Shown here piece by piece: positions 1,258 through 4,352 of a stretch of DNA of 4,352 nt. A program made the translations under genes and the position numbers. Within the stretch, counting starts at the first letter, position 1, and each line of letters opens with the position of its first letter. This DNA is from a virus (taxonomy: Duplodnaviria > Heunggongvirae > Uroviricota > Caudoviricetes). The notes beneath the pieces are model-generated. The model saw only the letters and a program-made list of their open reading frames with translations. It was not told the DNA's origin and searched no databases. The stretch is taken from IMG/VR virus record IMGVR_UViG_2713896777_000025; one strand, 5' to 3'.

Positions 1258-1807
1258 GGCACACCTCCTGACGAATACGGGCGGCGAATACAGCAACACA
1301 ACCGGACGGGCAACGGCTACGCGCTTCGCGTTCCGTCCAGGCGGTTACGTGGATGATTTGATGTTCTGACGCGCCAAAGATGATAAAGCGCCAGAGAAAG
1401 GCGGTTTGAGAATGTACAAGGGTAGGGATAGTAGCCATGTTGGCAGCCTCCTCAGTGTGGTTAAGATAACCGCCACCGGAAACGCCAATTTCGCTGGTGG
1501 CGGACTGTACAGGGTTGGCGTAACCGGACACTGAAGAAACCGGCGCGGATTGCTCCGCCCCCGTACAGCCCACCATTGATAAGGTGTGACTATGCGGCAC
1601 AAAAAAACACGCGGGGCGCGTGTTATGCGCTTCAGTTTTGCCCAGGACGCCAATCCCGGCACCCGTTTTATGAGGTGCGCGGGAATCATAGCTATTTTCG
1701 ACACTGGCGATCAACTGGTTTTTTTCTCCGATATTCAGGGCCAGAAAACGCCACACAAAGGCCGTTTGTGTGTGTACAAGGTGTGGTATATGATTTACGG
1801 CAACCAT
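1247..1807 (-). CDS. Small protein (186 aa) with an internal tandem duplication of an N-terminal module (HIPHLVHTQTAFVWRFLALNIGEKNQLI / TIPTLVHSQTAFLWRFIIFGASEHQII); possibly related to Icd-like proteins of P4-type elements (unverified)
   Basis: ATG at 1807-1805 with SD AGGAG (revcomp of 1813-1817) 5 nt upstream; frame open to TAA at 1249-1247. A second in-frame ATG at 1438-1436 has its own strong SD GAGGAGG (revcomp of 1447-1453, 8-nt spacer) and begins a 63-aa copy of the module. The longer ORF-track call 1247..2323 is rejected because it reads antisense through the RHH gene and the operator region. Confidence 0.55.
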   Translation of the reverse strand: MVAVNHIPHLVHTQTAFVWRFLALNIGEKNQLIASVENSYDSRAPHKTGAGIGVLGKTEAHNTRPACFFVPHSHTLSMVGCTGAEQSAPVSSVSGYANPVQSATSEIGVSGGGYLNHTEEAANMATIPTLVHSQTAFLWRFIIFGASEHQIIHVTAWTEREARSRCPSGCVAVFAARIRQEVCHVQ

Positions 1808-1915: not shown

Positions 1916-1944
1916 ATAGTAATGAAGGGTAATTACCATGTCAA
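1916..1944 (-). promoter_or_regulatory. Candidate sigma70 promoter for the minus-strand small-gene operon (TTGACA - 17 bp - TACTAT)
   Basis: On the minus strand, a consensus -35 TTGACA (revcomp of 1939-1944, overlapping the RHH start codon), an exact 17-bp spacer that contains palindrome 2, and -10 TACTAT (revcomp of 1916-1921). Predicted TSS near 1908, about 100 nt before ATG 1807. Confidence 0.45.
1928..1937. promoter_or_regulatory. Perfect 10-bp palindrome GGTAATTACC (candidate operator 2)
   Basis: Same core as palindrome 1, 30 bp centre-to-centre. Sits in the -35/-10 spacer of the minus-strand promoter and covers the RBS of the RHH gene. Confidence 0.5.
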
Positions 1945-2111
1945 CACCATTAGAAAAACGTTCGCCTCCATACCAAATGCGATTACCGGAAGACTTCAGA
2001 GCGCAGCTAGAAGAAGCAGCTAAGGCCGATGGCGACACATCTTTAGCCACTTGGATTAAACGCGTTCTCCGCAAAGAATTACAGCAACGCGGCATAGAAC
2101 CCAAAGGATAA
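1938..2111 (+). CDS. Arc/Mnt/MetJ-family ribbon-helix-helix DNA-binding protein (57 aa, MSTPLEKRSPPYQMRLPEDFRAQLEEAAKADGDTSLATWIKRVLRKELQQRGIEPKG)
   Basis: Not in the ORF track (below its size cut-off); translated by hand. SD AAGGG at 1925-1929, 8 nt before ATG 1938; stop TAA at 2109-2111. The protein has the Arc/Mnt RHH pattern: beta-strand YQMRLP, helix A EDFRAQLEEAAKADG, turn, helix B SLATWIKRVLRKELQQ. Confidence 0.8.
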   Translation: MSTPLEKRSPPYQMRLPEDFRAQLEEAAKADGDTSLATWIKRVLRKELQQRGIEPKG

Positions 2112-2353: not shown

Positions 2354-2381
2354 GGCGGCTCCATATCGGGGCCGCTTTTTT
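2354..2381 (+). terminator. Rho-independent terminator for the plus-strand RHH cassette (possibly weakly bidirectional, also ending alpA)
   Basis: GCGGCTCC (2355-2362) pairs with GGGGCCGC (2368-2375), 8 bp with one G-U, loop ATATC, followed by TTTTTT (2376-2381). On the minus strand the hairpin is followed only by CTTTCTG. Confidence 0.6.
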
Positions 2382-2407
2382 CGTGTTTGTCATATCTGTG
2401 ATACCCG

Positions 2408-2614
2408 TTAAGCAGCCGTTCCGCGTGCTTCCTCTTCGCGTTCTTTCTGCCAGGACAACACATCATCCTCATACCATCCGCGACGGCGTAAACCAACGCG
2501 AAAACCCTGCGGAAATTCTCCGGCGTTGATCATGCTTTGCAGCGTGCTGTCTGCCTTGATGTGGATAATTTTTTTTACTTCCTGGCGAAAGATAATTTTT
2601 CTGATTGCTTCCAT
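2408..2614 (-). CDS. alpA: AlpA/Vis-family phage transcriptional regulator (68 aa)
   Basis: ORF-track ORF. The sequence RQEVKKIIHIKADSTLQSMINAGEFPQGFRVGLRRRGWYEDDVLSWQ matches the AlpA family pattern (HTH, then G-x-FP-x-P/G-x-K/R-hG-x-R-x-x-GW, then W). SD AAGGT lies 8 nt upstream of ATG 2614. It sits downstream of int on the same strand, as in CP4-57-type islands. Confidence 0.85.
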   Translation of the reverse strand: MEAIRKIIFRQEVKKIIHIKADSTLQSMINAGEFPQGFRVGLRRRGWYEDDVLSWQKEREEEARGTAA

Positions 2615-2690
2615 CGTGATTTACCTTGTGAATCCGGTGTATTCCGGTGACAAATACGGTAAATCATCGGATATGGGTAAAAACAGTTCC

Positions 2691-2720
2691 CACCGTTTTT
2701 AAACGGTATACACCGTTTTT
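2691..2720. promoter_or_regulatory. Repeat cluster upstream of alpA: direct repeat CACCGTTTTT (x2) flanking a 16-bp inverted repeat ACCGTTT-TT-AAACGGT
   Basis: CACCGTTTTT at 2691-2700 and 2711-2720; ACCGTTT (2692-2698) and AAACGGT (2701-2707) are exact reverse complements. A related TACGGTAAA lies at 2655-2663. All fall in the roughly 165-bp region between the upstream terminator and the alpA start. Confidence 0.3.
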
Positions 2721-2747
2721 TATATTGATGATTTGAAATGGAATTAT

Positions 2748-2770
2748 AAAAAAAGCGGCATTTCTGCCGC
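2748..2770 (-). terminator. Rho-independent terminator ending the int / small-ORF transcript
   Basis: On the minus strand: stem GCGGCA, GAAA tetraloop, stem TGCCGC (plus coordinates 2755-2770), followed by TTTTTTT (revcomp of the A-run 2748-2754). Starts 11 nt after the TAA stop at 2784-2782. Confidence 0.65.
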
Positions 2771-2781
2771 TTCCAGGATTG

Positions 2782-3033
2782 TTACCGCCATTTTTTGGGC
2801 CTGCCTCCGATCTTCATAGATGCCGGACGTACGACCTTATCAATACTTACCGCCAGATTTCTGGAAGCGCCACGGGATACCAGAAAATCTACTACCTGTT
2901 TTTTTGATGGGGCCGTCGTTCTGTCCTCCGGATCGTAGGTTGACCAAAATTCATGCTGAACCATCAGGGCCAGTTGCAGCCCGTCGCAATTGCATCTGAT
3001 ATTTTTTTGCATCTTAACGGTTTCATGTTTCAC
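2782..3033 (-). CDS. Hypothetical small protein with a basic C-terminus (...KIGGRPKKWR); 83 aa from GTG 3033 or 76 aa from ATG 3012
   Basis: ORF-track ORF; its first codon is GTG, and the first ATG is at 3012-3010. Neither start has a convincing SD. Support comes from position (between int and alpA, same strand) and the canonical terminator immediately downstream. Function not recognised. Confidence 0.45.
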   Translation of the reverse strand: MKHETVKMQKNIRCNCDGLQLALMVQHEFWSTYDPEDRTTAPSKKQVVDFLVSRGASRNLAVSIDKVVRPASMKIGGRPKKWR

Positions 3034-3110
3034 GGCCTTGTCGTTAAATTTGATGCAATTATACGACGGTTTTACATGGTTTTCGTAGTTTTTACTGGTT
3101 TTCTGTACAG

Positions 3111-4352
3111 CTACACGGCTCGGATACCCCTTTTACCACTGGCGAGGGTTACGCCCGTCGCCGCAGCCTCGACAAATTCGCCCCACCAGCGCATCAGCAC
3201 GATGCGTTTTTCTATGTAGTTGCTCCGGTTGTATGCCCGTCTAACTTCGTTGGTGTCGACGTGGGCAAGTGCCGCCTCTATTACGTCCGGCTCGAATCCT
3301 TCCTCGTTCGCTGCTGTGCTGAATATGGCGCGTAATCCATGAGACACCAGCACGCCAGCGAATCCCATACGCCGCAATGCTGCGTTAGCTGTCTGGCTGT
3401 TCATCGGCTGCTGTGGGTCTTTCAGACTTGGGAAAACGTAATTGCGGTGGTGGCTGATTGGTTTCATGGCCTCCAGCACCGCCATAGCCTGACCGGAAAG
3501 CGGGATAACGTGATCCCTGCGCATCTTCATGCGTCCGGCAGGTATCGTCCATTGCTTCGCGTCCAGGTTGATTTCATCCCACCGCGTTGATGACGCTTCG
3601 GCGGGACGGGTTACGGTCAGTAACTGCCATTCAATCAGTAATCTGGTCTGCCGTTCTGTTGCCGATACTGATAAAGCCTGCATAAGCTCGGGCAGCTGTT
3701 CGGGGCGGATTGTTGGCATATGTTTTTTTACAGGTGAGGGAAACGCCTTACGCACATTCATAGCCGGATTGGCATCAATCAGCCCACTGTTGGCGGCGTA
3801 ATCCATTACCTCATTAACGCGCTGTAAAACCCGCTTGAGTGTTTCCAGGTTGCCGCGCTCCTTGATGGGGGTAAGCACTTCAACGAACCTTCGGGCGGTG
3901 AGGGTATCTATTGGCGTGTTGCCGATGAACGGGAATACATATTTATCCAGCGAACGCCAGATGTCTTTAATCGTGTTGGGGGCCAGATTCTGGCTGATTT
4001 TCACCTGGTACCATGCCGCCGCCACATTTTCGAACGTGTTCCCTTGTCTTCGGGCCTCTGTCTCTCTTTTTTGCCTCTCGTGGTCCTGCGGGTCAGTTCC
4101 GGCACTGATTAACGTCCTGTACTCGCTACGGCGTTTTCTGGCATCAGCCAGGGAAACATCTTCAAGCGATCCAAAACTCAGCAATATTCTTTTTTTGTCC
4201 GATGGTCGGTAGTAGGAAAATCTCCAGAGTTTTGATCCAGACGGTTTGACCAGGAGAAAAAGCCCTCCGCCGTCCTGCAGGGTGTACTCCTTTTGCGCTG
4301 GTCTGGCTGCTTTGATCTGCACTGTGGTTAATGGGTGTGTTTTTCTCGCCAT
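3111..4352 (-). CDS. int: P4-family tyrosine recombinase / phage integrase (413 aa, complete; ATG is the last 3 bases of the window)
   Basis: ORF-track ORF. N-terminal arm-binding-type region (LTTVQIKAARPAQKEYTLQDGGGLFLLVKPSGSKLWRFSYY) and a C-terminal catalytic domain with the conserved residues in order: R (LTVTRPAE), K (GRMKMRR), H-x-x-R (SHGLRAIF), H (ALAHVD), Y (RAYNRSNY). Stop TAG at 3113-3111. Confidence 0.95.
   Translation of the reverse strand: MARKTHPLTTVQIKAARPAQKEYTLQDGGGLFLLVKPSGSKLWRFSYYRPSDKKRILLSFGSLEDVSLADARKRRSEYRTLISAGTDPQDHERQKRETEARRQGNTFENVAAAWYQVKISQNLAPNTIKDIWRSLDKYVFPFIGNTPIDTLTARRFVEVLTPIKERGNLETLKRVLQRVNEVMDYAANSGLIDANPAMNVRKAFPSPVKKHMPTIRPEQLPELMQALSVSATERQTRLLIEWQLLTVTRPAEASSTRWDEINLDAKQWTIPAGRMKMRRDHVIPLSGQAMAVLEAMKPISHHRNYVFPSLKDPQQPMNSQTANAALRRMGFAGVLVSHGLRAIFSTAANEEGFEPDVIEAALAHVDTNEVRRAYNRSNYIEKRIVLMRWWGEFVEAAATGVTLASGKRGIRAV

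Follow-up and report, generated by a model that had tools for sequence, protein, structure and literature searches.

The DNA analyzed here (the window, 4352 nucleotides) is the int/alpA end of a ∼8.4-kb phage satellite of the PICI/P4-like type located at a tRNA-Pro gene. A 741-bp query taken from it (positions 2380–3120) is 100% identical to a segment of E. coli E2865 (L002), where the matching stretch forms the left end of a ∼8.4-kb island at tRNA-Pro/yejM. In addition to Icd/Ash genes and DUF4222, the E2865 island has genes for a RepA helicase, a small terminase subunit, and a capsid protein, and this content identifies the element as a PICI/P4-like satellite, with alpA as its switch gene. 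All of the features of immediate concern lie on the minus strand: a P4-type tyrosine integrase gene whose product has an N-terminal arm-binding domain (int, 3111..4352; Pfam), a gene for a 76-residue protein between int and alpA (2782..3012), an intrinsic terminator with a 10-bp stem and T run located by a terminator scan (2751..2774), and an alpA-like gene of 68 codons (2408..2614). The terminator insulates alpA from the upstream int and 76-residue protein genes; the L006 lineage has a terminator of different sequence at the equivalent place. A bidirectional terminator (2349–2381) follows the 3′ end of alpA. Downstream of alpA, a C4/CI-type antisense RNA (1493–1580, minus strand; Rfam, 77.6 bits) and isrK (1602–1678, minus strand; Rfam, 66 bits) make up a P4-type CI-RNA immunity module, together with a weak a1/b1 target match (1639–1691). 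Masked runs of N at 622–688 and 2197–2255 break open reading frames on both strands, and gene calls there are incomplete.

The 68-residue product scores 17.9 bits against Pfam Phage_AlpA (E = 0.0028), short of the cut-off of 21, and it matches the PHROG family annotated as excisionase and transcriptional regulator at E = 2.5e-6, and P4 Vis with 29% identity (E = 1e-7). Its AlphaFold2 model (pLDDT 70, moderate confidence) comes nearest to the GIsul2 excisionase (8c3t; TM 0.70/0.81), followed by MerR-family domains, BldC, and Pukovnik Xis; the Foldseek E value for the excisionase is 0.12, and nothing matched at E ≤ 0.001. By PHROG assignment, identity to P4 Vis, and modeled fold, the product is predicted to be Vis/Xis-like, and the gene adjacent to the repeats described below would accordingly encode a small MerR-like winged-helix protein of the recombination directionality factor (RDF) type. 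Antitermination at the flanking terminators, of the kind associated with P. aeruginosa AlpA, was considered and rejected. The latter is a different and larger protein, Q-like, whose C-terminal HTH (contact residues 128–142) reads GGGACG between the −35 and −10 elements (PMC9371919), whereas the protein encoded here is 68 residues long with a predicted MerR/Xis-like fold; the two have the name alone in common.

Seven sites upstream of alpA

The alpA upstream intergenic region is 166 bp long (2615–2780). The initial annotation had drawn attention to ACCGT-based repeats in this region, between the terminator (2774..2751) and the alpA-like open reading frame (2614..2408), and every copy that it quoted is present: CACCGTTTTT occurs at 2691–2700 and 2711–2720, 20 bp apart; AAACGGT at 2701–2707 generates ACCGTTT-TT-AAACGGT at 2692–2707; and the further copy placed ∼40 bp away is TACGGTAAA at 2655–2663. 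The letters of the central palindrome are therefore right, but the repeats are better parsed, in the sense of alpA (minus strand), as two tandem 18-bp dyads with a 7-N4-7 arrangement, because the gap between the dyads loses 1 bp in L003 and the internal N4 is kept. The first dyad, O1 (AAACGGT-GTAT-ACCGTTT; 2718..2701, minus strand), consists of sites S1 (2711–2718) and S2 (2701–2708), and the second, O2 (AAACGGT-GGGA-ACTGTTT; 2698..2681, minus strand), of sites S3 (2691–2698) and S4 (2681–2688). The dyads are separated by AA and their centers are 20 bp apart; as 8-bp sites, S1–S4 alternate in orientation with a spacing of exactly 10 bp. The full dyad has no further copy elsewhere in the island.

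Closer to alpA are three sites in a single orientation, S5 (TACCGTAT; 2661..2654, minus strand), S6 (CACCGGAA; 2649..2642, minus strand), and S7 (CACCGGAT; 2639..2632, minus strand), spaced by 12 and 10 bp and positioned just upstream of the ribosome-binding site. S5 corresponds to TACGGTAAA on the plus strand and falls within a fully conserved block, TTTACCGTATTT. S6 and S7 form a 10-bp tandem direct repeat, CACCGGAATA/CACCGGATTC (2649..2630, minus strand), which lies 16 bp upstream of the alpA ATG and had been overlooked in the original inventory of repeats. The order in the alpA sense is O1, AA, O2, 19 bp, S5, S6–S7, Shine-Dalgarno sequence, and ATG.

All seven sites are variants of a single 8-bp word, YACCGKWW. 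The window contains 8 matches to this word against 1.82 expected, a number reached by none of 200 shuffled sequences, and six of the eight are located inside 2632–2718. The dyad pattern AAACNGTNNNNACNGTTT is matched twice in the window where 0.01 matches would be expected; again, none of 200 shuffles contains two. Spacings of about one helical turn (10–11 bp) are found between S1–S4 (10/10/10), between S5–S7 (12/10), and between the units of the attL arm described below (10). Same-sense direct repeats are the arrangement of S5–S7 and of the attL arm; S1–S4 alternate and make up the two dyads. Part of the lineage has an additional site of opposite sense, CATCGGATAT (2665..2674, plus strand), between O2 and S5, which has the second-best score in the window with the att-arm matrix introduced below; in the L006 group the stretch is swapped for unrelated sequence of equal length.

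Conservation of the array among relatives

E. coli relatives were gathered independently of the motif, by BLAST with the region (78–100% DNA identity) and by look-ups of the neighboring 76-residue protein. All of them keep the seven sites, with AlpA identities of at least 76% and DNA identities down to ∼78%. Over 14 non-identical E. coli sequences, the 56 columns within sites are 97% identical and 46 are invariant, while the 66 columns outside sites, from the terminator to the Shine-Dalgarno sequence, are 75% identical and 18 are invariant. Seven of eight columns are invariant in each of S3 and S4, as are all eight in S5. The centers of the dyads vary among relatives (GTAT, GACT, GGGT, GAGT, GCCC, or TATA in O1; GGGA, GAGT, GACT, or GGGT in O2) while the half sites are conserved, and O1 of L031 is perfectly palindromic over all 18 bp. 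Outright replacement of the 12 bp separating O2 from S5 also occurs, with their length retained. The proximal 10-bp unit CACCGGAATA, present in two copies in the window, occurs in three copies in L005 and L011, a variation in the number of a presumed binding site upstream of the alpA Shine-Dalgarno sequence. Fifty further islands from IMG/VR were collected with a search pattern and orientation filter that fixed S2–S4 and the S5 block; these add variants of S1 and have no weight for the fixed sites. One-sided variants of S1 or S3 (AAACAGT, AAACTGT, AAAGGGT, AAACGAT, AAACGTT) were found among the relatives and IMG/VR islands, none of them accompanied by a compensatory change on the partner arm.

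These variants bear on whether the dyads act as nucleic-acid hairpins, forming an attenuator or terminator in the alpA leader RNA or a terminator of antisense transcription, and are not protein sites. A terminator scan flags 2701–2718 and its T run as terminator-like on the plus strand, in the alpA sense O2 runs into TTTTT, and the 136-nt leader folds better than shuffled versions of it (−34.7 kcal/mol, z = −3.5). In the L006 group, moreover, the variant S1 (AAACAGT) pairs perfectly with S4 (ACTGTTT). Yet the stems are A/T-rich and just 7 bp long, any array of dyads folds well by construction, and a strong terminator is already present 30 bp upstream. The S1 or S3 changes in L009, L011, L027, L043, and L060 break the pairing, whichever one is supposed, without compensation, and the S1 change in the L006 group likewise breaks its pairing with S2. 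Since the centers vary freely and changes in the arms are never compensated, protein sites are indicated and not hairpins, and we regard a role of the dyads as hairpins as very improbable. The dyads combine symmetric, conserved half sites with an unconstrained center and repetition in helical phase. The initial annotation had listed the repeats as candidate binding sites, and they behave as conserved regulatory protein sites in the only intergenic region upstream of alpA; they are real and conserved, and their conservation predicts that they are bound by protein upstream of alpA.

A genome scan with an AlpA alignment yielded 13 more distant loci, in Pantoea, Citrobacter, Pectobacterium, Erwinia, Brenneria, other Escherichia, and three metagenome-assembled genomes; AlpA identity is 57–64% in 10 of them and 33–46% in 3. 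None of the 13 has the dyads upstream of its alpA homologue. The expectation that the repeats would recur upstream of alpA in related islands held for all E. coli relatives examined but not for other genera, nor for EcCICFT073, the PICI studied by experiment, which has a different AlpA allele and lacks the dyads. Immediately upstream of the Shine-Dalgarno sequence, most loci of the 57–64% group retain CCGG/TCGG-type units repeated directly at 10 bp, such pairs being found in Pantoea, Pectobacterium, Erwinia, and Brenneria, and in Pectobacterium an ACCGTTT is located ∼17 bp above the proximal repeats, at the place equivalent to S5. Further upstream, the distant loci have lineage-specific repeats with a period of 20–25 bp. 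Protein searches with AlpA and with the 76-residue protein returned close E. coli/Shigella relatives only. By this distribution the dyads are confined to a single AlpA clade of E. coli (identity of 76% or more), and the alpA-proximal direct repeats are older than the dyads.

Two rearrangements of the region were observed in passing. In L003 (∼6400–6780), ∼400 bp are inserted between the terminator and the alpA array, and the insert contains four direct repeats of GTTTTGAGACAACAT together with two inverted copies in an iteron-like arrangement. In a record labelled Cooperia oncophora (P0037), which has the look of bacterial contamination in a nematode assembly, the entire intergenic array is deleted, leaving a 90-residue fusion in which the N-terminal half of the 76-residue protein continues into the C-terminal half of AlpA.

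Related units in the attL arm and candidate binding proteins

The attL arm of the E2865 island (∼220 bp, ∼17974–18192 of L002) lies just past the end of the window at 4352. The initial annotation had proposed comparing the repeats with the int and alpA upstream regions of related islands; the YACCGKWW core is also found in the attL arm of the island, in 10-bp tandem units. Next to the core, from the 3′ end of tRNA-Pro, the arm reads CACCGGATAT/CACCGGAAAG/CACCGGATAA, and further in, past a hairpin, TCACCGAACA/TCACCGGATT/..CAGCCGGATT, with all units in the int-to-alpA sense. These CACCGGAWW units adjoin the core as 10-bp tandem repeats, and four units in the L002 arm are exact matches to YACCGKWW. 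On the int-proximal side, TTAGTTATACG occurs twice in direct and twice in inverted orientation, followed by int. The layout of core, three 10-bp YAYCGKWW units, hairpin, three more units, and Int arm repeats abutting int is conserved in all relatives, L002, L012–L021, L027, and L031 among them, and recurs in Pantoea, Citrobacter, Pectobacterium, and Erwinia, independently of the type of integrase arm domain. The arms from other genera contain ACCGTTT-type and ACCGG-type units in a single 10-bp register (TATCGGTATT GACCGTTTAC AACCGGAATT), and because the two types share one register, a single protein plausibly reads both classes of unit. The ACCGT class is present within att arms in the other genera only.

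Two Pectobacterium islands, L015 and L017, have the same AlpA and identical YAYCGKWW units, and differ in the N-terminal arm domains of their integrases. Their int-proximal repeats differ along with the arm domain, TTAGTTATACG in one case and GGGACTA in the other, and because they change in this way they are assigned as Int arm sites. The YAYCGKWW units, being constant across the swap of arm domains, are not Int arm sites and are left for an RDF, here the AlpA/Vis-type protein. The array upstream of alpA could in principle also consist of arm-type sites for Int, which has an arm-binding domain, or of operators for the ribbon-helix-helix (RHH) protein encoded nearby (1938..2111; Arc-like, of the YlcI/YnfO type), which the initial annotation had proposed for binding assays together with AlpA. 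Both ideas are hardly credible. The array is ∼1.7 kb from the start of int, with the att core farther still, and the repeats that do change with the Int N-domain are TTAGTTATACG/GGGACTA instead. As for the RHH protein, L027–L030 keep the dyads in spite of Rha/ASH genes replacing the RHH module downstream, and the RHH gene has a pair of repeats of its own. Of the proposed binders, AlpA thus stands as the best candidate, by virtue of the core motif shared with the attL arm, and the RHH protein is not supported. The RHH gene's own pair, GGTAATTACCATG, occurs at 1898–1910 and 1928–1940, 30 bp apart, with the second copy overlapping the ATG of the RHH open reading frame; these copies are probably operators of the RHH protein, in a divergent promoter region that faces the Icd/Ash operon.

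A weight matrix was built from the att-arm units only, and the ∼8400 positions of the window were ranked with it. S7 ranked 4, S6 7, S5 14, S1 and S3 21–22, and S2 33, placing S1–S3 and S5–S7 within the top 0.4% of the window; S4 (AACTGTTT) scored poorly. The best match in the window is CACCGGAAAC, and there are two further good ones (1474–1483, 1522–1531, and 1536–1545 for the three). These matches sit at or inside the C4 RNA gene and could reflect chance or a further AlpA target.

The array sits in the promoter/leader region of alpA, and AlpA is the best candidate to bind it because the core motif recurs as helical-turn-spaced tandem repeats in the attL arm, a place at which binding of an excisionase-type protein would be expected. 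Binding at both att sites and promoters, with sites one helical turn apart, has been described for excisionase-type proteins including 186 Apl, P2 Cox, P4 Vis, and RdfS (PMC7498355, PMC2603039, PMC11963761). We give about even credence to the reading that the repeats are an autoregulatory array for AlpA, as a winged-helix protein of the Vis/Xis type, comparable with the sites of P4 Vis or 186 Apl. The 68-residue product of the downstream gene would bind the helical-turn-spaced CACCGGAWW repeats in the attL arm, leading to excision, and words of that type at its own promoter, resulting in feedback on its own transcription; the dyads and the direct repeats would then be read by one protein. Because the folds nearest to the AlpA model include MerR-family domains, binding of dyads by the AlpA fold is plausible. 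MerR-family domains bind 7-N4-7 dyads as dimers. Counting against one protein for all seven sites, S1–S4 alternate, whereas the RDF arrays described so far are direct repeats, and S4 scores poorly with the att-arm matrix. The array is an ordinary kind of operator in an unusual, dyad arrangement, and if only this ordinary reading holds it adds one more operator set for a dual-function excisionase/regulator. In the literature covered, no description of an AlpA binding site was found, and YACCGKWW is a candidate recognition word common to the alpA promoter and the attL arm.

The sites fall into two classes at position 6. Within E. coli islands this position is always T in the dyads and S5, and G (or A) in the att-arm units and S6/S7, with no interconversion between classes. 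Two different proteins are possible because the T and G classes never interconvert: S5–S7 alone would be AlpA sites, and the dyads would be tandem operators of a separate dimeric regulator. We see this as a tenable reading that falls short of being probable. Dyad symmetry with conserved half sites, free centers, and a 20-bp offset that puts both operators on the same helical face are the textbook layout for a dimeric HTH protein, and the strict T at position 6 of the dyads sets them apart from the att-type units. A precedent exists in the RdfS promoter, in which an inverted repeat for an activator lies upstream of RDF sites (PMC11963761). Set against this, the half sites share the YACCG core of the att-arm units and score in the top 0.4% by the arm matrix, and ACCGTTT units are found inside the att-arm arrays of other genera.

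The regulator in question might be the 76-residue protein, a host factor, a helper-phage inducer, or a repressor removed by a helper product. The gene for the 76-residue protein co-occurs perfectly with the dyads, being present at all E. coli loci (65–100% identity) and absent from L012–L024, and the AlphaFold2 model has three helices (pLDDT 80) and a basic GGRPKKWR tail. Since the clade represents one evolutionary event, this co-occurrence cannot separate AlpA from the 76-residue protein. No DNA-binding family or fold match was detected for the protein in Pfam, PHROG, NCBIfam, or the PDB, and it was rejected as a recognizable DNA binder on these grounds; it is retained as an alternative candidate binder.

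Promoter, helper phages, and known systems

A consensus scan of the alpA strand over 2615–2780 found no sigma-70-like pair, in agreement with the initial annotation. There is no convincing or conserved promoter for nATAAA upstream of S1, for TTTACC/TATTTn around S5, or with a MerR-type 19–20-bp spacer at the dyads, and the alignment contains no hexamer pair conserved across lineages that would give the dyads a defined promoter position. Because neither a promoter nor a transcription start can be placed, activation by the array is not separable from repression. The sole sigma-54-like match (GG-N10-GC) is inside the terminator stem. A late promoter of the P2/P4 type was considered and rejected, the TGT-N12-ACA Ogr/Delta dyad (near −55) being absent from both strands of 2615–2780. 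Consensus sites for LexA, CRP, FNR, lambda CII, and IHF are absent as well.

That no sigma-70 promoter is visible counts toward a separate regulator at the dyads, and other PICIs need a helper phage for alpA transcription, by a factor that has not been identified (PMC6092414, PMC11773190, PMC10803314). Studies of Gram-negative PICIs and of PICMIs treat the way in which a helper phage induces alpA as an open question (PMC6092414, PMC10803314). The dyads could be a docking site for an inducer from the helper phage, or for a repressor displaced by it, with AlpA feedback acting through the direct repeats only; we hold this to be unlikely. If true, the dyads would be the first sequence defined as a target through which a Gram-negative PICI senses its helper. 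The searches made for a regulator of this kind speak against a second protein at the dyads: the consensus sites named above, Ogr/Delta included, are absent, and no phage in INPHARED or IMG/VR showed the dyad as a clustered operator in the searches that follow. BLAST against 50,697 phage records, with a word size that makes the search insensitive to 7–8-bp half sites, gave only a 32-nt resemblance (E = 4) to the attP arm of Fels-2. IMG/VR contains no match to the double dyad and 23 isolated matches to a single extended dyad, mostly in low-GC contigs and by estimate at about the level of chance. The Fels-2 segment (CTGTTTTTAAACGCAATACACTGTTTTT; L025, 2503–2535) resembles window positions 2689–2720 with 84% identity over 32 nt and the same 20-bp period, and is probably a chance resemblance, though it is located in the int-proximal arm of a P2-like phage.

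A close parallel to an AlpA autoregulatory array is P4 Vis, which binds attP and regulates transcription (PMC2603039, PMC7498355). Like the protein predicted here, P4 Vis (orf88) is a small winged-helix protein of the AlpA/Xis type, and its gene lies downstream of int in a satellite. In the P4 record, vis is preceded by CCGG-type words (GCCGGAC..TCCGGTG), and the int-proximal arm has, next to the Int arm repeats, TCCG-type units spaced by 10–11 bp; the island in the window shares the P4-type immunity RNAs (C4/CI, isrK). In contrast, protein identity is only 29% and the recognition word is different, P_LL of P4 has an Ogr/Delta TGT-N12-ACA element upstream of vis that is absent here, tandem dyads are not evident upstream of vis, and alpA in the window is bracketed by terminators and then convergent genes. 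The sites of 186 Apl and P2 Cox, which are multiple, weak, one helical turn apart at att and promoter, and bound cooperatively in a filament-like manner (PMC7498355), resemble those described here in their helical-turn spacing at att and in the promoter region. However, the Apl and Cox arrays consist solely of direct repeats and are located between lytic and lysogenic promoters that face each other, whereas four of the seven sites here alternate and the array is upstream of the gene for the regulator itself; the proteins also belong to different families. MerR-family operators have the same 7-N4-7 geometry (18 bp), and MerR domains are among the nearest folds of the AlpA model. The dyads differ from such operators in that no −35/−10 pair with a 19–20-bp spacer surrounds either of them and that there are two in tandem, and the 68-residue protein lacks the long coiled coil and effector domain of the MerR family.

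[quoted passage not shown] AlpA feedback in EcCICFT073 is positive, and P4 Vis acts negatively on P_LL, its own late promoter. EcCICFT073 shares with the present island the architecture of int, alpA, RHH, Icd/Ash, DUF4222, primase, and capsid, as well as 10-bp tandem repeats upstream of alpA with related units in the attL arm; it differs by another integrase and AlpA allele (62 residues), an ACAAC word, and the lack of both dyads and the 76-residue protein gene. In L085 (8188–8247 and 8440–8510), six tandem 10-bp ACAACGnnnn repeats come right after the int stop codon, ACACAA-type repeats are located 30–80 bp upstream of alpA, and the attL arm has GTTGT-type units adjoining two copies of GGTGTAGTTAAT. 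These repeats are candidate AlpA sites, and the same logic carried by another word counts in favor of AlpA autoregulation.

For the island studied here, the array amounts to a conserved element of 90 bp in which seven sites are defined, and it bears on helper induction of Gram-negative PICIs. Its natural variants, including two or three proximal units, variant dyads, and the swap of Int arm domains, make models of autoregulation, excision, and induction testable. A further natural arrangement is found in E. coli Nissle 1917 (L001, 14731–14940), where a copy of the island lies between roxA and phoQ, the site occupied by EcCICFT073. The Nissle island has the alpA module of the window and only a truncated remnant of an integrase, an arrangement which implies that the int/alpA module has been exchanged between islands with common replication and capsid modules.
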